64,000 nt of DNA from Candidatus Magasanikiibacteriota bacterium (GTDB taxonomy: Bacteria; Patescibacteriota; Patescibacteriia; Magasanikbacterales; 2-02-FULL-50-9b). The notes beneath the pieces are model-generated. The model had not been told where the DNA came from and searched no databases. It saw only the letters and a program-made list of their open reading frames with translations. The stretch covers positions 60,015 through 124,014 of the forward strand of contig CALRDW010000001.1 in NCBI GenBank assembly GCA_943355025.1. Direction: 5' to 3'. Of the stretch, positions 1,705-25,750 are shown in pieces. The first letter of the stretch is position 1. Every line of letters starts with the position of its first letter. Made by a program: the position numbers and the translations under genes.

Positions 1705-1762
1705 AGCGGGTTGCGGCAGAGGTTGTCAGGATGCAGGAGCTTGTGATACGCTGGTGGCGCAA

Positions 1763-1833
1763 TCCGGGATCGTCTAATGGTAGGACACGGCCCTTTGAAG
1801 GCTGTTATCTTGGTTCGAATCCAAGTCCCGGAG
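1763..1833 (+). tRNA. tRNA-Gln (anticodon TTG)
   Basis: Hand-folded cloverleaf: 7 bp acceptor stem TCCGGGA/TCCCGGA, D-loop TCTAATGGTAGG, anticodon stem CGGCC/GGCTG with loop CTTTGAA, T-arm CTTGG-TTCGAAT-CCAAG, discriminator G. No encoded CCA. Confidence 0.75.
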
Positions 1834-1877
1834 CACGGTTGCTTCATATTTAAAAATTGTATTTCACCTGGGAGGGT

Positions 1878-2420
1878 ATGAGAAAAAAAGTTTTTGCAGT
1901 AATCGGAAGCGTTTTGTTTTTTGTGTTCGTGGCTTATAAAGGGACGTCAGTATTTCCGCGTTCGGCGTCAGCCCAGCACACACCAAATTATTTAATTCCT
2001 GATGGCACGGTTATTCGCACCGTTGATGGGGATACATTTGTTGTACAACTCGGCGGCCTACAGGAAAAAGTTCGTATGCTGGGAATGGATACGCCAGAGA
2101 CTGTTGATCCGCGAAAAACAGTTCAGTGTTTTGGAAAAGAGGCGAGTAAAAAACTGCACGAACTTCTGACTGATAAAATAGTAACTTTGAAATCAGATCC
2201 TGCAAATGATGATCGCGATAAGTACGGCCGAATTTTGCGCTATGTGTATTTACCAGATGGAACATTTGTTAATTCGATTATGATCGAGCAGGGCTTTGCA
2301 TTTGCATATATAAAATTTCCATTTATGTATAAGGAGCAATTTGTTCGGCTCCAGATGCAGGCGCGAGCGGCGCGCGCTGGTCTGTGGGGGAAGGAAACCT
2401 GCAATGGTGTGCATGGGTAG
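1878..2420 (+). CDS. Secreted thermonuclease (staphylococcal nuclease-like, SNase fold)
   Basis: N-terminal hydrophobic signal. SNase-type motifs VIRTVDGDTFVV, VRMLGMDTPET and YGRILRYVY. GGAGG RBS before the ATG at 1878. Confidence 0.8.
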   Translation: MRKKVFAVIGSVLFFVFVAYKGTSVFPRSASAQHTPNYLIPDGTVIRTVDGDTFVVQLGGLQEKVRMLGMDTPETVDPRKTVQCFGKEASKKLHELLTDKIVTLKSDPANDDRDKYGRILRYVYLPDGTFVNSIMIEQGFAFAYIKFPFMYKEQFVRLQMQARAARAGLWGKETCNGVHG

Positions 2421-2465
2421 GCAGCGTGGTATACTCACCGCGGAATAATTATAATTTCAACCTCT

Positions 2466-2939
2466 ATGGTATCAGCTGGAAAGAAGGCACCGTCATTCAA
2501 ATTATTTGACCAGTCGGGGACGCCGCATTCGTTAGCGGATGAGAGTGGTAAATGGGTTTTGCTTTATTTTTATCCAAAGGATGATACACCAGGATGCACA
2601 AAGGAAGCGTGCTCGATTCGGGATAATTTTTCAAAGTTTAAAAAATTAAATGTAACCGTGTTTGGAGTGAGTGCTGATTCAATAAAATCGCACGCAAAGT
2701 TTGTTGAAAAATACGAATTGCCGTTTATACTTCTTGCAGATATTGATAAAAAAATTGTCGCAAAGTATGGCGTGTGGGCAGACAAAAAATTTATGGGCCG
2801 CGAGTACAAAGGTATATTACGTACCTCATTTCTCATCGATCCCGAGGGGATCGTCGCGAAAGTTTACGAGAATGTAAAACCCGAACAACATGCGGATGAA
2901 ATTTTGTCGGATCTTAAAAATTTTCAGAAATCTCGGTAA
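2466..2939 (+). CDS. bcp: Thiol peroxidase / peroxiredoxin Bcp (AhpC/TSA family)
   Basis: FYPKDDTPGCTKEAC peroxidatic cysteine motif; length and layout typical of Bcp. Confidence 0.85.
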   Translation: MVSAGKKAPSFKLFDQSGTPHSLADESGKWVLLYFYPKDDTPGCTKEACSIRDNFSKFKKLNVTVFGVSADSIKSHAKFVEKYELPFILLADIDKKIVAKYGVWADKKFMGREYKGILRTSFLIDPEGIVAKVYENVKPEQHADEILSDLKNFQKSR

Positions 2940-3183
2940 AAAATACCCGAACAAAAGCCGAAATTGTGGGTGTGGATAGCCTGCTTGCGCAGGATGGGGT
3001 AGGGGTGTAAGGTTCCCCCACTAAACAACCTAACCCGCTGGCATATGCGCCTCGCATCAATACTCATGAGAGAAAATTTCTTTTGCGAAGACGGAGGTGA
3101 TTCCGAGGATGAGGAAGTGCTGTAAGGCACTTCTTTTGTATCTACGGCAGGGGAGTTTAAAAGTTTTCCACACCCCTAAAATT

Positions 3184-3206
3184 TGCTATTTATAGCATAG
3201 CAGGAT
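3184..3206. promoter_or_regulatory. Palindromic candidate operator (GCTAT-TT-ATAGC followed by ATAGCAGGA) upstream of sod
   Basis: Inverted repeat with perfect 5 bp arms, 14 nt before the sod start. Shares an ATAGCAGGA 9-mer with the palindrome at 9726..9744. Confidence 0.35.
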
Positions 3207-3219
3207 ACCTTTAATTTGT

Positions 3220-3822
3220 ATGAATAAAACTGAACCAAAATCATTACCCTTTACAAACGCTCCTGAGGGCATTTCAGAAAAAACTCTCGCTATCCATCAC
3301 GATAAGCTGTACGTTGGATATGTGAACAAAAAAAATGAGATCGAAGAAAAACTTGAGCCGCTCATGACTGGCGGGAGTGTTGCTTCTGCAAACCAAACGT
3401 ATTCAGAACTACGTGCTTTGAAGGACGGTGAAACATTTGCGGTCAATGGCGTGTATTTGCACGAATGGTATTTTGATGTGCTTGGCGGCGACGGGCTTGC
3501 GCATGGTGCACTCGCGGAAGCGCTTATCGGACAGTTCGGGAGCGTTGAAAATTTTATTGGATATTTTGCTGGGTGTGGTATGGCTGCTCGTGGATGGGCA
3601 GTACTCGCGTATGACACGCACGATAAAATGCTCAAAGTATATACGTGCGACTCACATAATCAGGGCGGGGTTTGGGGAGCAATTCCTGTAATCGTGCTCG
3701 ATGTGTATGAGCACGCATATTTTATAGATTATGGTAGCGATCGTGCGGCGTATATTCAAGCTTTTTTGAAGCAACTCAATTGGACGAAAGCAAATGAGTT
3801 GTTCGCTGCAATCTCAAAGTAA
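3220..3822 (+). CDS. sodA: Fe/Mn superoxide dismutase
   Basis: N-terminal LPF...HHDKLYVGYVNKKN and C-terminal DVYEHAYFIDYGSDRAAYI motifs that hold the metal ligands of the Fe/Mn SOD family. Confidence 0.9.
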   Translation: MNKTEPKSLPFTNAPEGISEKTLAIHHDKLYVGYVNKKNEIEEKLEPLMTGGSVASANQTYSELRALKDGETFAVNGVYLHEWYFDVLGGDGLAHGALAEALIGQFGSVENFIGYFAGCGMAARGWAVLAYDTHDKMLKVYTCDSHNQGGVWGAIPVIVLDVYEHAYFIDYGSDRAAYIQAFLKQLNWTKANELFAAISK

Positions 3823-3851
3823 TGGTTCTTTAATGTAATTGTATTTCTCGT

Positions 3852-4148
3852 ATGCCAACAGCGCAACAGTTTTCTCACTCGTTCGAAATTCCACAAGAGA
3901 CTCAAGCAGAGATTGAAGATATTGCCGCATATCTTTCGCAGGTATATGGATTTGATTTTCCACTCGAGCTTCTCGAGGATTGTTATAAACAGGTCGAACA
4001 AGTTGAAATTGTGCGTGCAATTGCGGACCGCGTAAAAGTCAGAATCAATATTGATCCAGATGATATTTTTGAAGATGAAAAAATGGCGCGCCACCTGAGC
4101 CGGCTTGAGCGTGCGTTTCAGTATTTTGTCGACGAACACCTCTCTTAA
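3852..4148 (+). CDS. Hypothetical acidic small protein (98 aa)
   Basis: ORF sits exactly between sod and the peroxiredoxin, same strand, no overlap. No recognisable motif. Confidence 0.35.
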   Translation: MPTAQQFSHSFEIPQETQAEIEDIAAYLSQVYGFDFPLELLEDCYKQVEQVEIVRAIADRVKVRINIDPDDIFEDEKMARHLSRLERAFQYFVDEHLS

Positions 4149-4162
4149 TTACATTTACGATT

Positions 4163-4690
4163 ATGAATATGTTACAAGTACGAACAGCAGCGCCGGAATT
4201 TGACGTCGAAGCTTACGTTGGCGGTGAAACAAAACATGTTTCATTGAAACAGTACCGTGGAAAATGGGTTGTCTTGTTTTTTTACCCCCGAGATTTTACA
4301 TTCATCTGTCCGACAGAGCTTAAGGGTTTTGCAACAAGCGAATCTGAGTTTACTGCATTGAATGCTGTACTCGTTGGTGCGTCGACAGATAGCGCGTTTG
4401 CACACAAGGCGTGGTTTGAGCGTGACCTTCCTATGGTCACGTATCCAGTTCTCGCTGATACAACTCACAGCGTAAGCCGCGACTATGGTGTTTTGCTTGA
4501 GGATTCTGGCGAGGCATTGCGCGGGACATTTATTATTGATCCGGATGGCGTGCTGCGCTACTCAGTAATTTCTGATTTGAATGTTGGGCGCTCAGTTGAT
4601 GAAACATTGCGTGTTGTTAAGGCGCTTCAAACAGGAGAACTTTGCCCAATCGAGTGGAAGCCTGGCGAAACGACACTGGGTAAAGCATAA
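4163..4690 (+). CDS. Peroxiredoxin, AhpC/Prx1-type 2-Cys
   Basis: FFYPRDFTFICPTEL peroxidatic Cys motif and a resolving Cys near the C-terminus (GELCPIEW). Confidence 0.85.
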   Translation: MNMLQVRTAAPEFDVEAYVGGETKHVSLKQYRGKWVVLFFYPRDFTFICPTELKGFATSESEFTALNAVLVGASTDSAFAHKAWFERDLPMVTYPVLADTTHSVSRDYGVLLEDSGEALRGTFIIDPDGVLRYSVISDLNVGRSVDETLRVVKALQTGELCPIEWKPGETTLGKA

Positions 4691-4693
4691 CGT

Positions 4694-5296
4694 ATGTCGC
4701 GCGAAGTGGTCTTTGATATTGAAACACAAAACACGTTTGATGAGGTTGGCGCAGGGAATCACAAAGGGCTGAAGGTGTCAGTTGTTGTTGCATATACGTA
4801 CGAGGATGATCAGTTTCACGTGTTTCGTGAGGAGAATCTAAAAGATCTCTGGCCAATTCTTGAACGCGCAGAACGATTGATCGGATATAATTCGAAATTT
4901 TTTGATATCCCAGTTCTGCAAAATTATTATACAGGTGATTTATCGAAAATTCCGCATCTTGATTTATTGGAGGAAATTCGACGATCTGCGGGATTTCGTC
5001 CAAAGCTTGATGATATTGCGCGAGCAACGCTTAACACACAAAAATCGGCGCACGGACTTCAAGCGGTTGAATGGTTTAAACAGGGCGAGTGGGAAAAAAT
5101 AGAAAAGTATTGCATTGACGACGTACGGATTACGCGTGATGTGTATGAATACGGAAAAACAAATAAACAAGTTTTTTATCCGGATTTGCAAGGAAATTTA
5201 AAACCAATTCCTGTAAAATTTGGTGTTGAAAAAGTTGCTCAGGGTGCTGGAATTGAGGCGCCAGGCACAGGCATGAATATGACGCTGCCCTTTTAA
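4694..5296 (+). CDS. 3'-5' exonuclease, DEDD (DnaQ/RNase D-like) superfamily
   Basis: Exo I motif VVFDIETQ, Exo II GYNSKFFDIPVL, Exo III YCIDDVRITRDVY. Confidence 0.6.
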   Translation: MSREVVFDIETQNTFDEVGAGNHKGLKVSVVVAYTYEDDQFHVFREENLKDLWPILERAERLIGYNSKFFDIPVLQNYYTGDLSKIPHLDLLEEIRRSAGFRPKLDDIARATLNTQKSAHGLQAVEWFKQGEWEKIEKYCIDDVRITRDVYEYGKTNKQVFYPDLQGNLKPIPVKFGVEKVAQGAGIEAPGTGMNMTLPF

Positions 5297-5306
5297 TTTT
5301 TTTCGT

Positions 5307-6587
5307 ATGCTTAAATTCGTATTGCAGCGCGCGCTTGCTTCGATTGCCCGGGCCGTTGTTAAAAAATATCGTCCAAAGGTTGTTGGCATCACGGGCTCTG
5401 TAGGAAAAACTTCAACAAAAGAGGCGTGTGCCGCCGTTTTATCGACGCGATATCGAGTTGGAAGCGCGAAAAAAAATTATAATAATGAGCTGGGCGTGCC
5501 ACTCACCATTTTGGGAGAGGATGCGCCAGGTCGCTCGATTCTGCGATGGCTCGGTTTATTTTTTACCGGCTTTCGCCTGTTGCTTACCGAAGACGCGTTG
5601 TACCCACAGGTTCTTGTTCTTGAACTTGGCGCAGACCATCCGGGTGATCTTGCTTATTTATTAACGATTGCACCGCTTGATGTCGCCATCATTACTGCAA
5701 TTGGTGCAGCACACACCGAATATTTTGGATCAATCGCCGGTGTGCTCACGGAGAAAAAAACAATTGCAGTTTCATTATCCAGCGACAAAATTGCAATTCT
5801 CAACGGTGATGATTCCTTACTCACAGAAATTCGAGGTGAGATTTCTGCACGTATTGTTTCATTTGGTTTTTCACCGACAAACGATGTTCAGGGTCGCGGC
5901 GTACAAACACATTATGCAACGGACGGCGTACCGGACGGCGTTGAGGCTGATGTATTTATGCGAGGCGAGGAATTTAGTTTAGTTATGTCAGGCGTGCTTG
6001 GACGACCAACAGTGTACGCCGCGCTCGCAGCTGTTGCAGTTGGTCAGGCAATGGACGTTGGTATGGCTGAGATTCAACTAGGACTTGCGACGGTTTTATT
6101 TCCACCCGGCCGTATGCGAATAATTCCTGGAATTAAGGGCACGCTACTGATTGATGACACCTATAACTCGTCACCAACCGCAGCTGCTGAATCGCTTTCC
6201 CTACTGGAATCATTGCATGCTCACGGTCGGCGAATTGCCATTCTTGGCGACATGTTGGAGCTTGGAGCTTTGACTGAAATCGAGCATCGTAAAATTGGAC
6301 TATTGGTTGCTGAGAAAAATATTGATGTGTTATACACCGTTGGCGGTGCGTCGCATGCTCTAGCCGCCGCGGCGCGTGAGGCGGGAATGGAAGAGTATTC
6401 GATTTATTGTTTTGATACGTCGGCAGAGGCAGGAAGATTTTTGCAAGATCGTATACAGGATGGGGATATTATTTTGATCAAAGGATCACAGGGTACGCGC
6501 ATGGAGCGAATTGTAAAAGAAGTCATGGCAGAGCCGCTCAAAGCAGAAAAATTATTAGTGCGTCAGGGGAAGGGCTGGGTTTCTTGA
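5307..6587 (+). CDS. murF: UDP-N-acetylmuramoyl-tripeptide--D-alanyl-D-alanine ligase MurF
   Basis: Mur ligase ATP-binding motif GITGSVGKTSTKE and C-terminal Mur ligase domain; length about 426 aa. Confidence 0.9.
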   Translation: MLKFVLQRALASIARAVVKKYRPKVVGITGSVGKTSTKEACAAVLSTRYRVGSAKKNYNNELGVPLTILGEDAPGRSILRWLGLFFTGFRLLLTEDALYPQVLVLELGADHPGDLAYLLTIAPLDVAIITAIGAAHTEYFGSIAGVLTEKKTIAVSLSSDKIAILNGDDSLLTEIRGEISARIVSFGFSPTNDVQGRGVQTHYATDGVPDGVEADVFMRGEEFSLVMSGVLGRPTVYAALAAVAVGQAMDVGMAEIQLGLATVLFPPGRMRIIPGIKGTLLIDDTYNSSPTAAAESLSLLESLHAHGRRIAILGDMLELGALTEIEHRKIGLLVAEKNIDVLYTVGGASHALAAAAREAGMEEYSIYCFDTSAEAGRFLQDRIQDGDIILIKGSQGTRMERIVKEVMAEPLKAEKLLVRQGKGWVS

Positions 6588-6647
6588 AAATTTTGTTTAT
6601 CTTTTTTTCTAGGAAAAAACAAGTATATCTTTTTTGCTACTTGTCTT

Positions 6648-6668
6648 TTGTAAGACAATGTCTTACAA
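6648..6668. promoter_or_regulatory. Perfect 10 bp inverted repeat TTGTAAGACA-A-TGTCTTACAA, candidate operator of the RHH gene
   Basis: Perfect palindrome ending 9 nt before GGAGG and the ATG of the RHH gene at 6678. Confidence 0.5.
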
Positions 6669-6677
6669 AGCGGAGGT

Positions 6678-6902
6678 ATGCGTAAAACAATTACAATTTC
6701 TTTGCCAGAAGAATTGGCTAAAAAATTAGCTGTAGAAATTAAGAGACGAAATTTTGCTACAACAAGTGAGTTTATTCGGCGTCTCATTAATAAATGGTTT
6801 ATTGAAGAAGAGGAGCGAAAATATTTACTCAAAAAACGCTCCAATCAAATTTTAAAGGATGTGATTAAGCGTGCAGAAGCGACAGGTTCTCTTGAAGAAT
6901 AA
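6678..6902 (+). CDS. Ribbon-helix-helix (CopG/ParD-like) DNA-binding protein, orphan antitoxin-like
   Basis: N-terminal TISLPEELAKKLAVEIKRR is a typical RHH beta-strand plus helix. 74 aa, strong RBS, no toxin-like partner on either side. Confidence 0.6.
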   Translation: MRKTITISLPEELAKKLAVEIKRRNFATTSEFIRRLINKWFIEEEERKYLLKKRSNQILKDVIKRAEATGSLEE

Positions 6903-6905
6903 AAA

Positions 6906-6930
6906 ATACCACCCGAAGGTGGTATTTTTT
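6906..6930 (+). terminator. Rho-independent terminator (ATACCACC-CGAA-GGTGGTAT + T5)
   Basis: 8 bp perfect stem, tetraloop and T-run directly after the RHH stop codon. An A-run lies upstream, so it is possibly bidirectional. Confidence 0.65.
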
Positions 6931-7004
6931 GGTAGCGCTAACGGGAGTCGAACCCGTCTTCTCAGATTGAGAATCTGATGTCCTAACCGATAGACGATAG
7001 CGCC
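6930..7004 (-). tRNA. tRNA-Glu (anticodon CTC), CCA encoded
   Basis: Reverse complement folds as GGCGCTA acceptor (G1:U72), D-arm GTCTATCGGTTAGGAC, anticodon stem TCAGA/TCTGA with loop TTCTCAA, T-arm ACGGG-TTCGACT-CCCGT, discriminator A, then CCA. Confidence 0.75.
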
Positions 7005-7103
7005 GGATAGCGCCTATTCTATCAGACCTTGTTCGAATGTTCAACCCGTCATTGACCATGGCTTGTAAACATGCTACTCTCGGATTGCATTTATGGAGGT
7101 TAC

Positions 7104-7976
7104 ATGCAGACGCTTTCAGTACCGAACATTGACCTTGAACGCATTGATGAGCCGAGCCCTTTTGGGACGGAACTTACTGCGGTTTCGAATCTTGCGGCCA
7201 TTCAATTGACTCCGCGCGGTTTGCGAGCGGAACGGATGGGGAACACACGAACGCTCATCGATCGGATCGCGGCGCTACCTGAATACATAGCGCCTCGACC
7301 TGGAGACACTCATGCACCGCACGGGCGTTTTCGTGGTCGGCAGATCATTGGTAGCGGCGCCGCGATTCGTGGTGGCGTCTATATGGGTCGCGGCCCGCGA
7401 GAAGCAATTGTTGTTGATCTTGAGCCGGGAACAGCAGCACGGTTTCTGTACGAACAGCTCGTTCTCTCTTCTTTCGCGGTAATTCAACCACAGTGGACGA
7501 AAGTGTGGCGGCACAATCTTTTGCACTTCTTTCTGGCCATTTTTTGGTTGGTGCCACCCGATGAAGATGATGATTCGCATGTGCCGCTTTCAGTGGCACT
7601 GCCCCGCATCACTTCGTTTGTTCAGCAGCACATGCCGTACAGCGATGCGCTCAGCGCCGAGGTAGCGCGGCGACTTAAAGCGGGAAAGGATGAAGAAGTT
7701 TCGATTGATGAGTATATTCGCGCCACCGCTGGCGTGTGTCGTCATCAAGTATGTTTGCTCGGCGGTTTGCTTGAGCAACTGATCGAGGCGGGGCATATCG
7801 CGGGCTCAGTTTCGATAGAGCGCGACTTACTGCTCGGCGGGAGTCACGCGTGGGTGCGCTTCACAGCGCCCGGCGGCCAGGCGTATATACTTGATCCAGC
7901 ACAAAATGTATTGTGCATGCGGCTGCAAGATATGCATGAAGGTACGCGGGCATTCTACGACAAACAGATGTTCTAA
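7104..7976 (+). CDS. Transglutaminase-like cysteine protease domain protein
   Basis: C-terminal core AGVCRHQ...GSHAWVRF...ILDP (Cys-His-Asp triad order of the transglutaminase-like superfamily). GGAGG RBS before the ATG at 7104. GC-rich relative to flanks. Confidence 0.65.
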   Translation: MQTLSVPNIDLERIDEPSPFGTELTAVSNLAAIQLTPRGLRAERMGNTRTLIDRIAALPEYIAPRPGDTHAPHGRFRGRQIIGSGAAIRGGVYMGRGPREAIVVDLEPGTAARFLYEQLVLSSFAVIQPQWTKVWRHNLLHFFLAIFWLVPPDEDDDSHVPLSVALPRITSFVQQHMPYSDALSAEVARRLKAGKDEEVSIDEYIRATAGVCRHQVCLLGGLLEQLIEAGHIAGSVSIERDLLLGGSHAWVRFTAPGGQAYILDPAQNVLCMRLQDMHEGTRAFYDKQMF

Positions 7977-8107
7977 CAGGGCGGCCACTTTTTCAAGCGG
8001 CCGTTTTTCATTTGCGCATAGTTTATTTGGTCTGTGTGTATAAATAAAAAAGCAGCAGACCTCGCGAAGTGCGTGGTGTGCTGCTAGTGCTTTGTCCAAA
8101 GCACTTT

Positions 8108-8746
8108 TTACTGCTTGGGTTTTCCCGGCGTTCGTTTGAACGAAAGGACTGTGCATTTGGTAATCGAGAGTCCAGATTTCTGCATCCAGCGTCCCAAAGG
8201 GGATGCTGCAATCGCTGTTTTCGCGGACTCGGGCAGTTCACTCAGTTTCTCGCCAGGATCGATTGCGACAATTCCAGGATTAGTTTTCACGCTTTCATTG
8301 AACAAGCGCATGAAAGCTACAGTCACGTATTCATCGGTCTCGGCGGTCATGATGATTTTTTTCTTCGCGAGCTTGTCCGTGAAGGCTGGTGAATGTGCGA
8401 ACGCAGTTGGGTCTGCAACGGCGAGCACAAACCCGTAATCAATGGCTGACACGGGACCATCGCCATGCATGTGGATCTCAAAAGCCTCTGAAACGTTAAT
8501 GCATTCGGAAGGGCACCATGCAACCTCCATTTTTTTCCAGGTGTCCCCTTCGTCAATTCGTTGAAGAACATCAGTGTGTCCTATGGGTTCTTCGAGCACT
8601 ACCGGCGAAAGAAGAAAGAGCATGCTGACCCCGAGCATGGCAGGTCCCACAATTCGTGAAACAGGATGTATTGGTGCTACAAGAAAGATAAAAACCGAGG
8701 AAACAACACCAAGGATTAATCCTATTATCATGAGTGCAATTATCAT
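8108..8746 (-). CDS. Hypothetical membrane-anchored protein (2 N-terminal TM helices)
   Basis: ORF overlaps the upstream minus-strand gene by 4 nt (operon). N-terminal hydrophobic helices followed by a soluble domain. No recognisable motif. Confidence 0.5.
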   Translation of the reverse strand: MIIALMIIGLILGVVSSVFIFLVAPIHPVSRIVGPAMLGVSMLFLLSPVVLEEPIGHTDVLQRIDEGDTWKKMEVAWCPSECINVSEAFEIHMHGDGPVSAIDYGFVLAVADPTAFAHSPAFTDKLAKKKIIMTAETDEYVTVAFMRLFNESVKTNPGIVAIDPGEKLSELPESAKTAIAASPLGRWMQKSGLSITKCTVLSFKRTPGKPKQ

Positions 8747-9687
8747 ATGCGGTCCTCCATAACGTCGAGCGTGCGCTCGACATCAATCGCGCGTTTCATA
8801 TAACGATCAACAGTGTCATGCAACAGCATGTCATCCACGCGGCTATTGCCGGTTGCCGGCCCTGCGACCGCCATGCGGATGCCCGTTTCTTCAATGAGCT
8901 CTGACAATTCGCGTGCAAGAGTTCCCACTCGCGTGTTTGCCTGAATGGCTGCGCGATAGAGAATGTCTGTGGTTCGCTCCTTGATACCGAGCGACTGTGC
9001 GCGCAGATCTGCGGCGCGTTGACTGAGCGCGATGTTTGACTGCGGATTGAGAAGATCCTCAACCGCCGTGAGCGATGCATCATATTTTGCTGCAAAGCCA
9101 TCGATATCCGTGCGGACTCGGCCAAGGCAGTCAGAAAATTCCTGCTCCGCTTCGGTCGCATTTTGAATCGCATCTTCGGCATCTTGCCCCGTGAATTTCC
9201 CCTCATTCATCCGTCCGGAAAGGGTAATGTGGAGGCTCGCTGTTTGGGTAAGAGCTTCTTCGAGCAGTATTCGGAATAGAACAAGCTCAGATTTCGGACC
9301 AATTCGCTCCTCGCGTTCTGCTAGCAGATTTGTGCGGAGAAAATCAGTCACGAGCTCTAAATCATTTTTATACTCTTTGGCGGGCTTGCCGCCTGCCGCC
9401 GCAACAACTTCATTGATACGCTCTTGTTTAATGATCTCTTGAATAAGGATCATCGCAGCCGAAGCCAGGCCTGCAGCTATGCAGATGCACCACCAGGCTA
9501 GATAACATCCGCTCACAGCGCCAGCTATAAATAGCACGACCACTGCAAGTATCAGCATGTTGCCGTAGGCATCGTCAGCGGGAGAATCCTCCAGGATGAT
9601 TTTTTCCGTCGGCTTCTTCGTCGCTTTGCGCCACTTTTCTGCTCGGCGTGTGAGCTGTTTAAATTGCCCTGTTATGGCTTGGTCCAT
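8743..9687 (-). CDS. Hypothetical membrane protein with long helical C-terminal domain
   Basis: 314 aa ORF with two central TM helices (LILAVVVLFIAGAVSG / WCICIAAGLASAAMILI) and a helix-rich remainder. First gene of a two-gene minus-strand operon. Confidence 0.5.
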   Translation of the reverse strand: MDQAITGQFKQLTRRAEKWRKATKKPTEKIILEDSPADDAYGNMLILAVVVLFIAGAVSGCYLAWWCICIAAGLASAAMILIQEIIKQERINEVVAAAGGKPAKEYKNDLELVTDFLRTNLLAEREERIGPKSELVLFRILLEEALTQTASLHITLSGRMNEGKFTGQDAEDAIQNATEAEQEFSDCLGRVRTDIDGFAAKYDASLTAVEDLLNPQSNIALSQRAADLRAQSLGIKERTTDILYRAAIQANTRVGTLARELSELIEETGIRMAVAGPATGNSRVDDMLLHDTVDRYMKRAIDVERTLDVMEDRI

Positions 9688-9725
9688 GAGGTTTGCCTCC
9701 TGATCCGGTTGATTTTGAAGGAGCC

Positions 9726-9744
9726 ACTGCGGCTACTGCTATAT
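9726..9744. promoter_or_regulatory. Perfect palindrome CTGCTATAT-C-ATATAGCAG in divergent intergenic region
   Basis: 9 bp perfect arms. About 40 nt upstream of the minus-strand membrane operon and upstream of a TTGATT-17-TAGACT promoter-like pair for typA. Confidence 0.45.
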
Positions 9745-9858
9745 CATATAGCAGGAATTAGCGCGGTTGTCAATGGAGCGTGGCCCCAAAAACTTGATTA
9801 ATTCGCTTAGTTCTGTTAGACTACGGCAATCTGAAAAATCGCATAAATTAGCGCTCGT

Positions 9859-11661
9859 ATGGACATCCGTAATATTGCAATCATCGCCCACGTTGACCAC
9901 GGCAAAACCACACTTGTGGATGCTTTGCTTAAAATTACCAAAACAAAAATTGGTCACGACCGTCCGGATGAGCGCGTAATGGACTCCAATGACCTGGAAC
10001 GCGAACGCGGCATTACCATTTTTTCAAAAAATGCGTCAGTGCATTACGGCGACACAAAAATTAATATCATCGACACACCGGGCCACGCTGATTTTGGTGG
10101 AGAGGTTGAACGCGTGCTCAAAATGGCGGACGGCGCACTACTTTTAGTTGACGCAAAAGAAGGCCCGATGCCGCAGACAAAATTTGTTTTAAAGAAAGCG
10201 ATTAACCTTGGCTTGCGAGTTATTGTTGTTATTAATAAGATTGATAAAAAAGACGCACGTTGTGAGTTCGTACTCAACACAACGTTTGATTTGTTTGTTG
10301 CGCTTGGCGCGAGCGATTATCAGCTCGACTTTCCAGTCATTTATGCGTCAGCGATTTCAGGCAAGGCAGGTTATGAAGACAATCTCGAGGCAATGACTGA
10401 CATAACACCGATTTTTGACACAGTTATCAAGAATATCCCAGCTCCAAAGGGCGATCCAGAGGCGCCACTCCAAATGTTGGTTGTTTCGCTCCAAATGGAT
10501 AACTATAAAGGAAAACTCGGTATCGGTCGTATTTTTAACGGCCGTGTTAAAAAAGGTGACACGGTTACACACATCAATCGAGAAGGTGTCATGACGAAAC
10601 AAAAAGTTACTGCACTTCTTGCGTTTGAAGGACTTGAAAAAACGGAAATCGAACATGCGCAGGCTGGTGACATTATTTTGCTCGCAGGTGTTGGCGATGT
10701 TTCAATTGGCGACTCGATTGCTGATGCTGTCACTCCTGTTGCACTCGACATGCTTGAAATCGAACAGCCAACCGTTAAAATGACGTTCCGTGTTAATGAT
10801 TCGCCATTTAATGGAAAAGTTTCAGGTACAAAGAATACCTCGCGCCTTCTCCGCGAACGTCTCGACAAAGAATTGGAAACTGACGTTGCACTCCGCGTTG
10901 AGCAGGGAGACAGTGCTGATAATTTTGTTGTGTCGGGTCGTGGTGAATTGCACCTCGCAATTTTGATTGAAAAAATGCGCCGCGAAAATTATGAGCTTCA
11001 AGTAACGCGACCGCAAGTTGTGACGCACATGGAAAATGGTGTTGAAATGGAGCCGGCCGAGGATGTATATGTTGAAGTTCCGGAAAACTATGCGGGAACA
11101 GTTATCGAAAAACTTGGTAAGCGCCGAGGTGAGATGAAAAATTATTCAGTGCAGGATGGCCACGCGCAAGTTCATTTTTTGATTCCAACGCGCGGTCTCA
11201 TCGGTTATCGCAATGAATTCATGACCGATACAAAGGGTACCGGTATTTTGAACTCGCTTTTTAACGGATTTATTCCGTGGGTTTCAAATTTATCAACCAG
11301 TAATCACGGCTCGCTTATTGCATTTGAGGCTGGCATTACGACGGGTTACGCTCTTGAGTCAGCGGGTGAGCGCGGACAGTTGTTCGTTGGTCCTGCAATG
11401 GAAGTTTACGCAGGACAGGTTGTTGGACAAAATGCGAAGGACGATGATTTGGAAGTTAATGTGTGTAAGGAAAAGCGTTTGTCGAACATGCGCTCGTCTG
11501 GCGCTGACATGGCAGTTAAGCTCGAACCTCATCGCACACTTACACTTGAAGAAGCTATTGAATATATTGGAGATGATGAGTGGGTGGAAATTGTGCCAAG
11601 CGAAATTCGAATTCGTAAGCAGTATTTGAGCCCGAACGATCGGAAGAAAAATTCACGATAA
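9859..11661 (+). CDS. typA: Translational GTPase TypA/BipA
   Basis: AHVDHGKTTL G1 motif, DTPGH, NKID. 600 aa, EF-G-like domain order without domain IV, as in BipA. Confidence 0.9.
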   Translation: MDIRNIAIIAHVDHGKTTLVDALLKITKTKIGHDRPDERVMDSNDLERERGITIFSKNASVHYGDTKINIIDTPGHADFGGEVERVLKMADGALLLVDAKEGPMPQTKFVLKKAINLGLRVIVVINKIDKKDARCEFVLNTTFDLFVALGASDYQLDFPVIYASAISGKAGYEDNLEAMTDITPIFDTVIKNIPAPKGDPEAPLQMLVVSLQMDNYKGKLGIGRIFNGRVKKGDTVTHINREGVMTKQKVTALLAFEGLEKTEIEHAQAGDIILLAGVGDVSIGDSIADAVTPVALDMLEIEQPTVKMTFRVNDSPFNGKVSGTKNTSRLLRERLDKELETDVALRVEQGDSADNFVVSGRGELHLAILIEKMRRENYELQVTRPQVVTHMENGVEMEPAEDVYVEVPENYAGTVIEKLGKRRGEMKNYSVQDGHAQVHFLIPTRGLIGYRNEFMTDTKGTGILNSLFNGFIPWVSNLSTSNHGSLIAFEAGITTGYALESAGERGQLFVGPAMEVYAGQVVGQNAKDDDLEVNVCKEKRLSNMRSSGADMAVKLEPHRTLTLEEAIEYIGDDEWVEIVPSEIRIRKQYLSPNDRKKNSR

Positions 11662-11683
11662 ATAATTTGGAAGCTTAAGAAAA

Positions 11684-11708
11684 CCGGAGTGCAAGCTCCG
11701 GTTTTTTT
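11684..11708. terminator. Bidirectional rho-independent terminator (CCGGAG-TGCAAG-CTCCGG + T7)
   Basis: Hairpin flanked by an A-run and a T-run between the convergent typA and sugar-transferase genes. Confidence 0.65.
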
Positions 11709-11709
11709 A

Positions 11710-13080
11710 TTACTGCCCCTTCCGATATAAAATCACGTGGAATGTTTTGAGAAGAATGGTGAGGTCGAGAAAAAACGAGCGATTTTTGACGTAGTATAAA
11801 TCGTATTGAAATTTAGTGAGTTGCTGCTCTGGCGTTGCAGCGTAGGGATAATTAATCTGCGCCCATCCGGTTACGCCAGGCTTGATTAAATGTCGAACGG
11901 TGTAGTACGGCATGGTGCGTTCAAACTCATACACAAATTTTGGACGCTCTGGACGCGGGCCGATAAGACTCATGTCGCCGCGCAGCACGTTAAAAATTTG
12001 TGGTAATTCGTCGAGCCGTAGAGTGCGCATTAATTTTCCAACGGGCGTAATACGCGGATCATTGTGCGTTGTAAATTGCGCTCCGCGTAGTTCTGCGCCA
12101 CCCTGCTTGTCGAGTGCAAACATGGTGCGAAATTTGATAAGCCAAAAACGCTTACCATTTTTTCCGACACGCTCCTGTTTATAAAATAACGGACCACGTG
12201 AGGTAGCTTTGATTGCAATCGCGATCAGTGGAAAAACACAGAGGAGCGCTAATAGAGCGAACACGCAGAGAATATATTCGGCGATTCGACGAGCAACATC
12301 GTATGCGACGACACGGTCGGCTTTGAGATTTTCGAAAAACCACGCCTCGCTCAAAACACTGAGTGAAACACGACCCGTCATGGTTTCAAAAAAAGAATCA
12401 GCGGGCATCACGTGTACATTCCAAAACAACAATTCGTAAAGTTCGCGGTACATCAGTGCTTGTGCCGCATCATTTTTTGTAACAAGGACAAGCGAGATAT
12501 GATGTTCGGAAACAAGGGCACGAAGTTGCTCATGCGAATGAAAAACGGTTAAATTTTTTGGTACGTGTGTTCCTTCAGGCACAAGAACACCCGCGATTTC
12601 ATAGCCCAGCTGTTTATTGCGCTCAAGTGTTGAAAGCAGCTCAAGGGTGTCTGCATGCGGATTTACCGCGAGTACGCGTATGGCTGTGTGCGGGAGAGCA
12701 TGCATGAGTGTGCGCCAGCCGATAAAAATAATCGCATAAACTCCAGCAAGAATAAACAAATTTGTTTTTGGTGTGATGCCAAAAATGGGAATCAAATAAA
12801 ATAAACCAACAGCAATGGTGAGACCCATCGCAACGCTTTCTGTAAAGCGGCGATAGAGCGCAATTGTAGGTTTGCTCAGATACAAATCGTAGAGGCCATT
12901 AATATATGCAAGAAGTATCCACACGAAGAAGATAATGCTAAAAGGAAGAATGTGGAGCACGTATTGAACACCAAATTCTGGCAGTGTATAGCGAATTACA
13001 ATCATCACTGCAAGCGAAAGATAGAGTGTTGCGACGTCACCTGCTAGTAGAATGAATTGTCGTGCTTTGACAGCAGTCAT
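11710..13080 (-). CDS. Polyprenyl-phosphate sugar phosphotransferase (WbaP/CpsE-like bacterial sugar transferase)
   Basis: C-terminal Bac_transf motifs DELPQIFNVLRGDMSLIGPRP and PGVTGWAQIN; multi-TM N-terminus. Confidence 0.85.
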   Translation of the reverse strand: MTAVKARQFILLAGDVATLYLSLAVMIVIRYTLPEFGVQYVLHILPFSIIFFVWILLAYINGLYDLYLSKPTIALYRRFTESVAMGLTIAVGLFYLIPIFGITPKTNLFILAGVYAIIFIGWRTLMHALPHTAIRVLAVNPHADTLELLSTLERNKQLGYEIAGVLVPEGTHVPKNLTVFHSHEQLRALVSEHHISLVLVTKNDAAQALMYRELYELLFWNVHVMPADSFFETMTGRVSLSVLSEAWFFENLKADRVVAYDVARRIAEYILCVFALLALLCVFPLIAIAIKATSRGPLFYKQERVGKNGKRFWLIKFRTMFALDKQGGAELRGAQFTTHNDPRITPVGKLMRTLRLDELPQIFNVLRGDMSLIGPRPERPKFVYEFERTMPYYTVRHLIKPGVTGWAQINYPYAATPEQQLTKFQYDLYYVKNRSFFLDLTILLKTFHVILYRKGQ

Positions 13081-13141
13081 AAATACTCTGTATAATTTGA
13101 GTCGTTATACCAGATTTAGCTAGAAAAAACAAGTTCCATCT

Positions 13142-13837
13142 ATGATATCATCACAAAATAAAATTATAGCCGGCATCGTTCTCGTAGTTCTGATTTTAGG
13201 CGGTTGTTTTGCTTATTATTCAACACGTGCGCCAGGCATCCCGAGTCGTGCGTCTTTAGACGGAAAGCCAGAGCTCCAAGTGGCATATGACAAAGCGCTC
13301 GCTGCAGAAAAAGCGATTCCATCAGATAAAACAAACCCACTTCAATATGTGATCGCGAGTTCGGAATGGAAAACCATTGGCGATTTTACAAATAATCCTG
13401 TGTGGTACCGTCGCGCACTCAGCGTGTTACAGGAAGGCATCACAGCAACTAAAGGCACAAACTCGCTACTCATTACTAACGCCGCTGTAATCGCAACCAT
13501 TTCGGGCGACTTTGAAACAGCGCGCGCGCTTTACGAACAAGCAATTGCAGATGCCCCAGGCGATGGTTCATACTACACCGCACTTGCACATCTACTTTCA
13601 GGCAAAATGCACGCGAGCCAGGCAGATGTATTAAAAATTTACACTCGTGCAATAGAACGTGTTATTGGCGGAGCGGATATTATTCAGGACCGAGCACTGT
13701 ACTTTAAATCTGTTGGGCGATACGATGACGCGCTCAAGGATTACGAGCAGCTCAAAAATTCAAATATTATTTCTGCAGAGAAATATGCAGACGTGCTTGT
13801 TGAAATTAAACAACTAGAATCATCGCAACCGCGTTAA
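13142..13837 (+). CDS. Hypothetical protein with N-terminal TM anchor
   Basis: 231 aa ORF; TM helix IIAGIVLVVLILGG followed by an alpha-helical domain. No recognisable motif. Confidence 0.45.
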   Translation: MISSQNKIIAGIVLVVLILGGCFAYYSTRAPGIPSRASLDGKPELQVAYDKALAAEKAIPSDKTNPLQYVIASSEWKTIGDFTNNPVWYRRALSVLQEGITATKGTNSLLITNAAVIATISGDFETARALYEQAIADAPGDGSYYTALAHLLSGKMHASQADVLKIYTRAIERVIGGADIIQDRALYFKSVGRYDDALKDYEQLKNSNIISAEKYADVLVEIKQLESSQPR

Positions 13838-13849
13838 ACTTTTTGCTCT

Positions 13850-15850
13850 GTGATTAAAAAAAATCGTTCTCGTGCCCTTGTTTCGCTTTCAATATTTTTG
13901 TTTGTATTGTTTCCACTCACTGCAGCGGCTCGTACTTCGAACGATCCACAGATTGCTGATTTAACAGGGCCGTTTGATCAAATACATGTGCAAGACGCGT
14001 GGGATTTTACGCAAGGTTCTCCTGACGTTGTTGTTGCCGTGATTGATACGGGTGTTGATATTACAAATCCAGATCTTGTAGGAAATGTGTGGGTTAATCC
14101 CCATGATACAGCTGACGGCACAGACAATGATGGTGACGGTAATATTGATGATATTCACGGCTGGAATTTTATTGATAATAATAGCAACGTACGTCCGACA
14201 TTTACAGCGGCTGCAACGCGTATCGGACTTAATCACGGAACGATTGTTGCAGGTATTATTGGCGCGACCGGAAATAATTTGACCGGTGCAAGCGGGGTTA
14301 ATTGGCACGTTAAAATCATGGCGCTCAAAATTTTGGATGAGCATGGCGACGGCGATTCGGATCTTGCAGTTAAAGCAATTGATTACGCAATCAAGCACAA
14401 TGCAAACATTATTAATTTGAGTTTTGTTGGACCAACACCAAGTTTAAATTTTATTCAAGCAATTAGGCGTGCATATCGTGCAGGTATTTTGGTTGTTGCA
14501 GCGGGCGGGAACGCGGCCGAGAACTCGAAGGGGACGGATCTCAATGTTGTCCCACAGTATCCTGTTTGTTTTGATGATCCGCTTAAAGAAGAAAATTGGG
14601 TGCTTGGCGTAGCAGCCTTGACTGAAAATGGATTGCTCGCGCCATTCTCAAATTTTGGGAGCAAATGTATTGATCTTGCAGCCCCAGGAACGCATATTCC
14701 CGCGACCATGTTTTATGATCCGCAAAATGGATACCCGGATATTTTTGGTGGTAGTTGGTCAGGAACTTCGATCGCAGCGCCGTTTGTAACTGGTGTTGCT
14801 GCGCTCGTAAAAACGGTACAACCAACATGGGGACCTGATCAGTTGATTCGTAATTTGATAGAAACCACTGATTCGATTCCAGGCAATGATACACACGCGG
14901 CAGGACGCGGCTCGCTTAATGCTCTGCGCGCTGTGCGAAATGCGGCACAAGGTGGTGATGGAGGCTTGCCAACGGGTGTTTTTGTCTCAACTTCTGTAAG
15001 TAAGGGCGCAACGCTCGCAAAAATATTTGACTCATCATTTGTTGAACTCAAGTCATTTGAGATTTCACACATTGCCCCGAAACAATCTGTTTCGCTGGTA
15101 ACGGGAGATATTGACGGAAGCGGTGTTTCAAACATTATCGCTGCGGTTCCAGACAAAAAAGGCACGCTCATTCGTGTTTTTCAGCGCGACGGCAAATTAC
15201 TTCGCGATGTTCGACCGTTCGGTAAATCGGAACAAGGTGCGGTTCAAATTACAACACGCGACTTAGATCTCGATGGTATTGAGGAAATTATTGCTGCAAG
15301 CCCGTGGACGCACCAAGTCGTTATCATGAACAGCACGGGAAAGATCACAGGTAAAATTCAGATTCAGAATGGCAAGTTGCCGATACTTTTAACAACATTG
15401 CGTGAAGGAAGTTCTACATTTATTGTAACGGCAGTGCCAGACAAGAAAGTTGCGCACGTGTTTGTGTGGGATGTTATCGGCTCGTTTATTCGTTCCTTTG
15501 ATGTGCTTGTAACAGGTACGGGGGTTACGCTTGGTACCGCAGATTACTTAGGAGTCGGACATGAGGAATTGTTTCTGTCAGGCATTGCTGGTAACACATT
15601 GACAACACAATTTTATACGCTTGACGGAAGTCCTGACAACACACGAACGGCACAAATAAAAAACGGAAAAATTTTTGGCTTCTCCTTTGCGTTCGTTAAA
15701 GATCTTGAGGGACCAACACTTGTTGTTGCTGTTCAGCAAGGAAAAAATTATAGTTTTCAAACGGCAGATACACACGGAGCGGTTCAGCCAGTGATGACGA
15801 GCGTTAATAAAACAACCGTGCAAGGGCAAAATCTGTATTTTGGAAGATAG
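13850..15850 (+). CDS. Subtilisin-like serine protease (peptidase S8) with C-terminal FG-GAP/beta-propeller-like repeats
   Basis: Catalytic triad motifs VAVIDTGVD (Asp), HGTIVAGIIGA (His), GTSIAAPFVTGVAAL (Ser). Signal peptide present. C-terminal repeats GDIDGSG... and DLDLDG.... GTG start. Confidence 0.85.
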   Translation: MIKKNRSRALVSLSIFLFVLFPLTAAARTSNDPQIADLTGPFDQIHVQDAWDFTQGSPDVVVAVIDTGVDITNPDLVGNVWVNPHDTADGTDNDGDGNIDDIHGWNFIDNNSNVRPTFTAAATRIGLNHGTIVAGIIGATGNNLTGASGVNWHVKIMALKILDEHGDGDSDLAVKAIDYAIKHNANIINLSFVGPTPSLNFIQAIRRAYRAGILVVAAGGNAAENSKGTDLNVVPQYPVCFDDPLKEENWVLGVAALTENGLLAPFSNFGSKCIDLAAPGTHIPATMFYDPQNGYPDIFGGSWSGTSIAAPFVTGVAALVKTVQPTWGPDQLIRNLIETTDSIPGNDTHAAGRGSLNALRAVRNAAQGGDGGLPTGVFVSTSVSKGATLAKIFDSSFVELKSFEISHIAPKQSVSLVTGDIDGSGVSNIIAAVPDKKGTLIRVFQRDGKLLRDVRPFGKSEQGAVQITTRDLDLDGIEEIIAASPWTHQVVIMNSTGKITGKIQIQNGKLPILLTTLREGSSTFIVTAVPDKKVAHVFVWDVIGSFIRSFDVLVTGTGVTLGTADYLGVGHEELFLSGIAGNTLTTQFYTLDGSPDNTRTAQIKNGKIFGFSFAFVKDLEGPTLVVAVQQGKNYSFQTADTHGAVQPVMTSVNKTTVQGQNLYFGR

Positions 15851-15871
15851 GAGTGTTATACTAAGGCAGCT

Positions 15872-16885: not shown

Positions 16886-16890
16886 CATGT

Positions 16891-17544: not shown

Positions 17545-17549
17545 TATAT

Positions 17550-17915: not shown

Positions 17916-17921
17916 TTTTAT

Positions 17922-19052: not shown

Positions 19053-19089
19053 TGCGTTCACTTTGAAATTATTATAATAGCTTTTTCGT

Positions 19090-19854: not shown

Positions 19855-20169
19855 TTATCCGCTTATCCACAGGGATAAGCTGTGGCCAGAGTTGTTTGCA
19901 CAGTGCTCAGTGGCATGGTACGGTGAGCGTGCTCTGAAACACTTTGGCCTTGGCCACACACGAATCACCTGAGCATTCTCGGGGGTCGTAGGTCTGCGGT
20001 ATACAAAGGAGGGGAGCCACTTGACGCGTACGAGGAGGGCGCCGCATCACCGAGATTGATGCGCATGGAATTTTTGGCTTGTTGGGGGACGGCTGGGGAC
20101 TCCCTGGGGGTGGTTTTAAGTGAAGAGGGTATCTCGCACATGGTGTTATACAAACGTATGGAGGGGCAT

Positions 20170-20196: not shown

Positions 20197-20217
20197 ATGT
20201 TATAATCGGACCGATTT

Positions 20218-24011: not shown

Positions 24012-24026
24012 CGAAAGGTATGCTTT

Positions 24027-25741: not shown

Positions 25742-25750
25742 ATAACTTTT

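Follow-up and report, generated by a model that had tools for sequence, protein, structure and literature searches.

A probably horizontally acquired segment between tRNA-Glu and typA of a Candidatus Magasanikbacteria chromosome carries a transglutaminase-fold enzyme and a two-gene membrane cassette

Introduction

CPR/Patescibacteria have small genomes that are commonly regarded as streamlined, and integration hotspots have, to our knowledge, been little described in such reduced genomes. Proteins of the LapG/BTLCP type are periplasmic and calcium-dependent and are partnered with LapD- and LapA-type proteins. CPR-C4 (PDB 7pjo) is described as a zinc-binding cysteine protease with a non-canonical Cys-His-Leu(carbonyl) triad that is highly conserved across the CPR (PMC9108980).

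Here we analyze a 64,000-nt stretch from the chromosome of an uncultured member of Candidatus Magasanikbacteria (referred to below as the window), in which the DNA from about 7005 to about 9785 probably represents a lineage-specific segment that was acquired horizontally and carries two unrelated cargo modules, the enzyme P1 and the membrane-protein cassette P3-P2 (Table 1).

Table 1. Coordinates of the features in and around the segment between tRNA-Glu and typA
Feature	Position	Strand	Description
tRNA-Glu, anticodon CUC	6930-7004	minus	ARAGORN; Rfam tRNA, 60.6 bits; left landmark
P1	7071-7976	plus	Predicted soluble, cytoplasmic transglutaminase/papain-fold Cys-His-Asp enzyme of an unnamed family
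P1 catalytic codons	Cys223 7737-7739; His259 7845-7847; Asp275 7893-7895		Predicted catalytic residues
P1/P2 intergenic spacer	7977-8107	no strand	Between convergent genes
P2	8108-8746	minus	212-aa membrane protein; second operon gene
P3	8743-9687	minus	314-aa membrane protein; first gene of the two-gene operon
Palindrome	9736-9754	no strand	Perfect, 9+1+9, CTGCTATAT-C-ATATAGCAG; candidate operator
-35 hexamer TTGACA	9768-9773	minus	Perfect; 17 nt upstream of TGn-TATATG; putative P3-P2 promoter
typA promoter and leader	9794-9858	plus	TTGATT 9794-9799, 17-nt spacer, TAGACT 9817-9822; right conserved flank
typA	9859-11661		Next after the right conserved flank

Results

Composition and borders of the segment

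The first-pass annotation had described a GC-richer block beside tRNA-Glu, and quantitative analysis indeed found a non-uniform composition in GC content, GC at third codon positions (GC3) and tetranucleotide distance. Between 7071 and 9858 the GC content is 0.516 compared to 0.465 in the remaining window, which places this stretch approximately 2.4 SD above the mean and in the top 0.4% of equal-length windows across the 64,000 nt. A GC content of 0.51 is also reached by two more blocks, one near 36.1-38.9 kb and one near 52.4-55.3 kb, so the shift is real yet moderate. The individual genes reach 0.545 (P1), 0.484 (P2) and 0.526 (P3), and their GC3 values of 0.53, 0.49 and 0.53, respectively, exceed the mean of 0.42 (SD 0.057) of the 66 open reading frames in the window, among which P1 and P3 rank third to fourth and P2 sixth. 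In tetranucleotide distance the block ranks highest in the window (z of approximately 3.8).

The placement of the tRNA gene in the first-pass annotation was confirmed by ARAGORN and by Rfam, in which the tRNA was the sole match. In alignments, similarity to two related genomes (L008 and L009) ends exactly at the 5' end of tRNA-Glu (7004/7005) and similarity to relatives resumes at the -35 element of typA. The variable DNA ends at about 9774-9790, just past the -35 hexamer of the putative P3-P2 promoter. P1, P2 and P3 are the only open reading frames with coding features in between. The spacer between the convergent genes P1 and P2 contains a terminator-like hairpin (8086-8105) that is followed by a T run, a type of hairpin that was no more common in our consensus scan than in shuffled sequence.

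The same slot in related genomes

Three related genomes, L004, L008 and L009, have TypA proteins that are 90, 89 and 87% identical to that of the window, and all three keep the typA promoter and leader. The window genes from 718 to 6587 as well as typA are collinear with those of L008 and L009, which retain RNaseH-murF-tRNA-Glu and typA with other genes in between, namely genes for 2OG-Fe(II) oxygenases and an M48-like peptidase. A tblastn search with P1, P2 and P3 against these two genomes gave no match. Although the slot genes of L008 and of L009 are both 2OG-oxygenase-like, they lack pairwise similarity, and we therefore rejected an orthologous relationship between them. In another genome, L010, the slot holds sugar and pyrimidine genes. 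The slot cargo of the relatives has a GC3 of 0.64-0.69 compared to 0.44-0.54 in their typA genes. In the L004-type genome a P1-family gene (P0005) lies directly upstream of typA and a large serine recombinase gene is found two genes upstream of it; however, P0005 is 38% identical to P1, which is thus no nearer to it than to a Myxococcota homologue (39%). Conserved presence of all three genes at this position across relatives, which would have spoken against acquisition, was not found, as the three genes are missing there in the closest relatives L008 and L009, and the proposal of acquired accessory DNA is supported by the deviant composition together with the differing slot contents.

Such a combination of deviant composition and variable presence (the block is absent from L008, L009 and L010, each of which has different cargo) is a trait of genomic islands. 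An integrase-mediated insertion into tRNA-Glu, followed by loss of the integrase, would account for a compositionally deviant block next to a tRNA gene and for the large serine recombinase close to the P1-like gene in the same slot of the sister genome. We nevertheless regard this origin as very unlikely. Relative to tRNA-Glu, the cargo is located at the 5' (promoter) side instead of the 3' end, the regions 6900-7040 and 7041-9900 have no 11-mer in common, no convincing direct repeats were detected, there is no integrase reading frame between 6.5 and 10 kb, and P1, P2 and P3 match no recombinase model. In addition, large serine recombinases are not known for a characteristic preference for tRNA genes. 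The search for flanking repeats derived from the tRNA, which the first-pass annotation had proposed as a check, yielded only weak 73% repeats at chance level, and neither an integrase or transposase nor a direct repeat or tRNA fragment was found at the borders. The tRNA-Glu gene is a landmark of the segment, not a demonstrated integration site.

P1 belongs to an unnamed transglutaminase-fold family

The true start of P1 is most likely the ATG at 7104, giving a product of 290 aa, since a GGAGG motif lies 5 nt upstream of this codon but is lacking before 7071, and a protein of 290 aa is also annotated in other assemblies. The predicted fold, conservation within the family and Pfam matches among its members corroborate the transglutaminase-like Cys-His-Asp core that had been noticed in the sequence, which P1 carries as GVCRHQ, HAWV and ILDP. 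Across 49 family members Cys223 never varies, while 90% or more retain His259 and Asp275; in the 14 closest sequences all three residues are invariant. An invariant motif, GGVY.G...REAIVVD, which includes Glu111 (7401-7403), is located in the N-terminal part and is specific to the family. In the AlphaFold model, which has a pLDDT above 90 in this region, Cys223 opens a helix (223-239), His259 lies within a strand (257-265) and Asp275 at the end of another strand (271-275). A Foldseek comparison with the PDB returned solved transglutaminase cores with marginal E-values of approximately 1e-2 (best 7e-3). P1 itself had no match in Pfam and NCBIfam at E<=1, and PF04473 (DUF553) was matched by 11 of the 49 family members, with P0028 alone passing the gathering score (25.8 versus 20.5).

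The family comprises about 50 sequence clusters from CPR and also, judging by a single named member of one cluster, from Myxococcota. Its proteins are small (about 270-300 aa) and have no transmembrane helix and no apparent signal peptide; in P1, the N-terminus lacks a hydrophobic segment (maximum Kyte-Doolittle 19-mer score 1.21). One branch carries an N-terminal FHA domain fusion, which suggests that its members are targeted to proteins marked by phospho-threonine. No recurrent neighbor emerged from the 16 P1-family loci or from two further look-ups. The thiolate-imidazolium pair of P1 would attack amide or isopeptide linkages in protein substrates via a thioester intermediate, and the enzyme might act as a protease, isopeptidase, deamidase or transamidase. 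The earlier designation as a transglutaminase-like protease therefore stands with regard to the fold, while protease activity is merely one of several chemistries that this fold allows.

P3 and P2 form a rare and rapidly evolving membrane cassette

The arrangement of the reading frames and their hydrophobic helices agree with the previously proposed operon of two membrane proteins that overlap by 4 nt. The overlap consists of ATGA, both genes are convergent with P1, and each has a GGAGG ribosome-binding site, that of P2 being situated inside the end of P3. Judged by this layout, P2 is translationally coupled to P3. Both proteins have two hydrophobic helices. In P3 a basic N-terminal helix bearing the conserved motif F-x4-R-x-A-x2-W is accompanied by a transmembrane hairpin (approximately aa 44-85) and an all-helical bundle of about 230 aa that is predicted to be cytoplasmic; the confidence of this model is low to medium (pLDDT 67), and fold comparison matched it to helical bundles of a generic kind. 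P2 starts with two transmembrane helices (approximately aa 1-25 and 35-52), and its C-terminal domain of about 155 aa, which is probably extracytoplasmic, contains an invariant W-C-P-x-x-C-x-N motif at aa 77-84.

Word-indexed protein searches with P3 and P2 returned self matches alone. In contrast, an exhaustive phmmer search identified three distant P3 homologues of 301-314 aa, each of which is followed by an overlapping reading frame of 202-216 aa with two transmembrane helices and the WCPxxCxN motif. P3-P2 is thus a rare conserved cassette rather than a pair of singletons. At two of these loci (L100 and L103) the cassette directly follows a Bac_transf (PF02397) gene, and at the third (L099) it comes after MurJ and TerC; in the window, Bac_transf and a glycan cluster are located just past typA. 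Since L100 and L103 are related genomes, the association with Bac_transf rests on very few independent cases. The host loci have a GC content of 60-63%, which the cassette matches. While the Bac_transf proteins of L100 and L103 are 88% identical with a dN/dS of 0.07, their P3 and P2 proteins share only 45 and 32% identity with a dN/dS of about 0.42. Between the window and the strain variant L007 the dN/dS of P3 was 0.65, and P2 showed 11 non-synonymous versus 1 synonymous change, so that purifying selection is not apparent from these small counts. Such rapid turnover of the P3-P2 sequences suggests a role at the surface that involves exposure or conflict.

The scarcity of homologues in word-indexed searches and the dN/dS values relative to L007 (P3, 0.65; P2, above 1) might also be expected if P2, P3 or both were chance reading frames in GC-richer DNA. 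This is extremely improbable, considering that the frames extend over 314 and 212 codons with GGAGG ribosome-binding sites on both and an ATGA overlap, and that three distant genomes show this two-gene architecture again, with the same lengths, transmembrane pattern and motifs and a dN/dS of about 0.42.

Upstream of P3 we found the perfect palindrome that the first-pass annotation had reported, 10 nt away from the coordinates assigned there (9726-9744). The window contains 4 palindromes of this kind compared to about 0.5 expected by our own estimate. The palindrome upstream of P3 overlaps the extended -10 element TGC-TATATG (9750-9745, minus strand) of the promoter-like site for P3. As the palindrome is kept in the strain variant L007 and missing upstream of typA in L004, L008 and L009, it belongs to the cargo. 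A role as a typA promoter element was rejected, because the palindrome is not kept where the typA promoter is kept.

The two modules and their origin

P1, P3 and P2 could in principle constitute one system, for instance a membrane sensor with a cytoplasmic cysteine-hydrolase effector in phage defense or inter-bacterial conflict. However, 16 P1-family loci were without P3, P2 or any conserved neighbor, a P1-family gene was missing at all three P3-P2 loci, P1 is convergent with P3-P2 and lies outside their operon, and there were no PADLOC, PHROG, phage or plasmid matches, which makes a single system highly improbable. More generally, P1, P2 and P3 gave no PADLOC or PHROG match at E<=0.1, searches of viral contigs, phages and plasmids with P1, P0005 and the P3 family revealed no relatives, P2 and P3 returned nothing usable from Pfam and NCBIfam, and searches of PDB sequences, whether started from single proteins or from family profiles, produced EF-hand or coiled-coil noise alone.

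The P1-family gene in the sister-genome slot and the Bac_transf gene past typA, which recalls L100 and L103, could also fit an ancestral presence with subsequent loss.

An origin in which all three genes are ancestral and were lost or replaced in relatives, with the GC content resulting from amino-acid usage or local mutation bias, would be in line with a P1-family gene upstream of typA in the genome with a 90% identical TypA, with the window Bac_transf beyond typA given that Bac_transf directly precedes the cassette in L100 and L103, and with a slot that is GC-rich in several relatives and may thus be so for regional reasons. Nonetheless, we consider it unlikely: P1 and P0005 are 38% identical compared to 90% for TypA and a Myxococcota protein is equally distant from P1, the GC excess extends to third codon positions, the slot is filled with different, unrelated genes in every relative, and the sole P3-P2 homologues belong to loci whose GC content is about 60% or higher. 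In the favored explanation, the segment was probably acquired horizontally and occupies a slot, bounded by tRNA-Glu(CUC) and the typA promoter, that would be permissive for recombination. Composition, gene structure, family conservation, fold, synteny and evolutionary rates are observations, while the route of acquisition, the chemistry and substrates of P1, and membrane topology and complex formation are inferred.

Discussion

The segment is a solid and fairly ordinary example of accessory DNA. The compact slot, whose contents differ in every near relative and include genes of foreign composition, shows where CPR genomes take up and exchange accessory functions. Catalogues gain an unnamed transglutaminase-fold family as well as a rare membrane cassette of two genes, whose evolution outpaces that of neighboring genes several-fold, a signature typical of surface or conflict proteins. 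The functions of P1 and P3-P2 are putative, and their value is that of a lead, not a discovery.

P3 and P2 may assemble into a complex that spans the membrane at the cell envelope, in which P2 would contribute a transmembrane hairpin and an outward-facing domain with the Cys-x3-Cys arrangement. A more far-reaching and unlikely interpretation joins two proposals, that P3-P2 represents a hitherto undescribed trans-envelope module of ultrasmall CPR-type bacteria that diversifies fast and is exchanged through a hotspot, and that the P1 family is a new branch of transglutaminase-fold modifiers linked to phospho-signals through its FHA association. Under this interpretation P3 would serve in the cytoplasm as a scaffold of BAR-like or coiled-coil type and P2 as a surface-exposed domain bearing a disulfide or metal; the module would work with the initiating phosphoglycosyl transferase or lipid-II flippase in shaping or guarding the surface of the cell, with attachment to a host or exclusion of phages as examples, and lineages would exchange it at the tRNA-Glu/typA hotspot.

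Compared to known systems, P1 is predicted from its fold to share the Cys-His-Asp core of the transglutaminase-like/papain-like superfamily (animal TG2/TG3/FXIII cores, bacterial TgpA, S. pyogenes TglA, Pfam DUF553), from which it differs by its own invariant N-terminal module and by the FHA fusion in some relatives. Unlike LapG/BTLCP (Peptidase_C93), P1 has no hydrophobic N-terminal segment, no corresponding Pfam match and no LapD- or LapA-like neighbors. In contrast to CPR-C4, to which it has no sequence match, it has a canonical Cys-His-Asp triad and a patchy, accessory distribution. P3-P2 resembles envelope-polysaccharide proteins encoded beside an initiating phosphoglycosyl transferase (Wzz/CpsC class) in its Bac_transf neighborhood, its two transmembrane helices and its long helical domains; however, sequence and profile comparisons with Wzz/CpsC-type families revealed no similarity, and P3 and P2 each have an adjacent transmembrane hairpin and a terminal domain instead of a loop domain between transmembrane helices. 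Finally, although the copy in the window is very small (2.8 kb) and has neither a mobility gene nor repeats, the slot resembles integration hotspots and genomic islets in its conserved flanks, differing cargo, deviant composition, bordering tRNA gene and the presence of a recombinase in one relative.

Variable DNA between tRNA-Glu and typA

The host of the window is a CPR/Patescibacteria genome. TypA identity is 89% with Candidatus Magasanikbacteria RIFCSPHIGHO2_02_FULL_50_9b (L008), 87% with L009, 70% with L010, a MAG of Magasanikiibacteriota, and about 60% with Uhrbacteria. L009 (CAZUSU010000023.1) is titled "uncultured Gammaproteobacteria bacterium", yet from its TypA identity and its RNaseH-murF-tRNA-Glu-typA order, which agrees with Magasanikbacteria, this MAG is probably misclassified. 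Upstream of tRNA-Glu, between 718 and 6587, gene order is the same as in L008 and L009, and typA follows in each, while the content between tRNA-Glu and typA is different in every genome compared: a single 2OG-Fe(II) oxygenase-like ORF in L008, an M48-like peptidase and an unrelated 2OG oxygenase in L009, EamA-like, glycosidase and pyrimidine genes in L010, and in the window the transglutaminase-fold protein P1, convergent with the membrane-protein cassette P3-P2. The window's DNA is also archived as an 84-kb ENA contig, and L104, another assembly from this population, stops right after P1. In an L004-type genome (TypA 90% identical), described here by gene order upstream of typA, typA is preceded by a serine recombinase, a cupredoxin gene and a P1-family gene whose product (P0005) is 38% identical to P1, a Myxococcota homologue (39%) being no farther. 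The recombinase on the P0005 contig, a 562-aa large serine recombinase (Resolvase and Recombinase domains) encoded two genes ahead of the P1-like one, is a candidate agent of cargo turnover at this site.

Features of the locus and of a second GC-rich region (window positions)
Feature	Position	Strand
murF	5307-6587	+
Perfect palindrome, 11+1+11	6647-6669	
Small RHH/CopG gene	6678-6902	+
tRNA-Glu(CUC)	6930-7004	-
P1	7071-7976	+
P2	8108-8746	-
P3	8743-9687	-
Perfect palindrome	9736-9754	
TGC-TATATG	9750-9745	-
TTGACA	9773-9768	-
typA -35, TTGATT	9794-9799	
typA -10, TAGACT	9817-9822	
typA	9859-11661	+
Bac_transf	11710-13080	-
Perfect palindrome, 10+1+10	36713-36733	
High-GC3 ORF	37151-37972	-
High-GC3 ORF	39879-40361	+

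In the alignment, conservation with relatives stops at the 5' end of tRNA-Glu and restarts at the typA -35/-10 elements and leader. The RHH/CopG gene between murF and tRNA-Glu (74 aa, Pfam RHH_1 at 4e-8) has the lowest GC among 66 ORFs (GC 0.33, GC3 0.27) and is missing from L008 and L009, so variable DNA, here low-GC, lies on the other side of tRNA-Glu too; the palindrome ahead of it is probably its own operator. Synteny with L008 and L009 is also broken directly downstream of typA (window 11710-26000 versus 9800-17800), where the window has Bac_transf, followed by TPR and S8 peptidase genes and a glycan-synthesis cluster, and L008 and L009 have small ORFs (a 105-aa ORF among them in L008) and then a giant protein of at least 1,560-1,756 aa, its ORFs reaching the locus end. 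On the P0005 contig typA is followed by DUF5663 (105 aa) and a 1,829-aa protein; none of these genes of L008, L009 and the P0005 contig is present in the 64-kb window.

The GC-richer block that the first-pass annotation placed beside tRNA-Glu is borne out by quantitative analysis. GC is 51.6% in 7071-9858 versus 46.5% in the remaining window; among equal-length windows (mean 46.9%, SD 1.9%) 0.4% reach the block's value, all overlapping the block itself, and 51% is also attained by two further regions. GC3 is 0.53, 0.53 and 0.49 for P1, P3 and P2 (3rd, 4th and 6th among the 66 ORFs; mean 0.42, SD 0.057), and the tetranucleotide distance from the window average is largest for the block (0.252 versus 0.183 ± 0.018). 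The compositional shift is thus genuine but moderate. The slot cargo of relatives is GC3-rich as well (0.64-0.69 versus 0.44-0.54 for typA). Loci of P3-P2 homologues have 60-63% GC with the cassette in line with its surroundings, which fits an import from GC-richer donors. Two ORFs in a second GC-rich region at about 36-39 kb, which also contains a palindrome, have the top GC3 of the window (0.62, z about 3.5), exceeding that of P1, P2 and P3, and may be additional foreign genes.

P1, a transglutaminase-fold protein

The annotated ATG of P1 at 7071 is without a ribosome-binding site, while ATG 7104 has GGAGG 5 nt upstream and a 290-aa product is called in other assemblies; the latter is the likely start. 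P1 had no match in Pfam, NCBIfam, PADLOC, PHROG or PDB sequences, and a search of a large protein collection gave 49 homologues (28-41% identity). Invariant in this family are Glu111-Ala-Ile-x-Val (REAIVVD motif), Gly221-Val-Cys223-Arg, Arg251 and Trp261, and at least 90% conserved are His225, His259, Asp275 and Tyr296. Pfam DUF553 ("transglutaminase-like") is matched by 11 of the 49 members, one of which (P0028) beats the gathering threshold, and four weakly match arylamine N-acetyltransferase, an enzyme with the same fold as the transglutaminase superfamily. We conclude that P1 belongs to the transglutaminase/papain-like superfamily as a family of its own without a curated model; cleavage, deamidation and cross-linking are putative options for its chemistry. 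Comparison with the LapG/BTLCP and CPR-C4 types of enzyme showed P1 to be neither.

No hydrophobic segment was found in P1, which points to a cytoplasmic location, in agreement with the N-terminal FHA domain in nine of its 49 relatives. Residues 136-172 (window 7476-7586) form an aromatic and hydrophobic insertion, QPQWTKVWRHNLLHFFLAIFWLVPPDEDDD, of low confidence in the predicted model (pLDDT 52-59), at a place where the loops of homologues are shorter and rich in Trp; this segment could make contact with a membrane or a substrate. Neighbour clustering over 16 loci, with two further look-ups, gave no recurrent neighbour of the family; its contexts include OsmC/VWA, ExbBD-TonB, Fpg/RecF-like and Band_7, and Myxococcota are the named source of one cluster member.

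The P3-P2 cassette

The two membrane-protein ORFs with a 4-nt overlap were correctly recognized at first reading: the overlap is ATGA, each gene has a GGAGG ribosome-binding site and each protein two strongly hydrophobic helices. Their apparent orphan status was not sustained. A word-indexed search recovered the same genome and its 95% variant L007 only, while exhaustive phmmer with P3 found three distant full-length relatives (301-314 aa, 23-26% identity, E 4e-12 to 3e-10), each followed on its contig by a 202-216-aa ORF overlapping by 4-7 nt. These ORFs share with P2 two N-terminal transmembrane helices, a basic loop between them, an acidic Cys-containing segment past the second helix and an invariant W-C-P-x-x-C-x-N motif. 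Because of this recurrent arrangement and these common features, P3-P2 is, by sequence comparison, a rare yet conserved unit. By the positive-inside rule, judged by eye, the helical domain of P3 would be cytoplasmic and the C-terminal domain of P2 extracellular. The cassette comes immediately after a Bac_transf phosphoglycosyl transferase in L100 and L103, and after MurJ and TerC in L099; since L100 and L103 are mutually related, this is weak evidence for a link to the envelope. In the L100/L103 lineage the cassette is followed by a conserved 215-223-aa ORF (L100 7666-8313, L103 7551-8222, L102 2026-2697) with H..L.H and HD-like motifs, no Pfam match and no counterpart in the window, and in L103 then by a MoxR-type AAA ATPase and a VWA protein.

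Between L100 and L103, Bac_transf is 88% identical (dN/dS 0.07), compared with 45% for P3 (0.42) and 32% for P2 (0.43). Between the window and L007, typA is identical in protein (0 non-synonymous, 31 synonymous changes; dN/dS 0), compared with 95% for P3 (17.5 and 8.5; 0.65) and, over the N-terminal part present in L007, 93% for P2 (11 and 1; above 1). Judged by these comparisons, P3 and P2 are real genes evolving several-fold faster than their neighbours. This fast change explains their orphan look and is consistent with a function that is exposed or tied to conflict.

The perfect palindrome described upstream of the cassette exists, 10 nt from its reported position. Like TTGACA and TGC-TATATG it lies inside the variable DNA. 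These two elements, the first perfect and 17 nt from the second, plausibly form the P3 promoter, and the palindrome, lying across its -10, is a possible operator.

Origin of the islet

The description given by the first-pass annotation and its main inference, acquired accessory DNA, were upheld, after correction of where the palindrome lies, where P1 likely starts, the idea of integration at the tRNA and the orphan status of P3 and P2. No integrase, direct repeat or tRNA fragment was found at the block and the cargo is positioned 5' of tRNA-Glu, features that speak against a classical tRNA island; phage, plasmid or viral relatives were likewise not found. Since P1 and P3-P2 are convergent and their families never occur together at any other examined locus, we treat them as independent cargo sharing one hotspot by chance. 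Overall, the locus holds a compact, hypervariable islet made up of two gene families of which little is known. We hold this structural and evolutionary account with fair confidence, while any specific biochemical function assigned to its genes would be doubtful. For work on CPR surface biology, and on how diverse transglutaminase-fold enzymes are, the islet offers a useful lead; on present evidence it does not represent a new kind of system.
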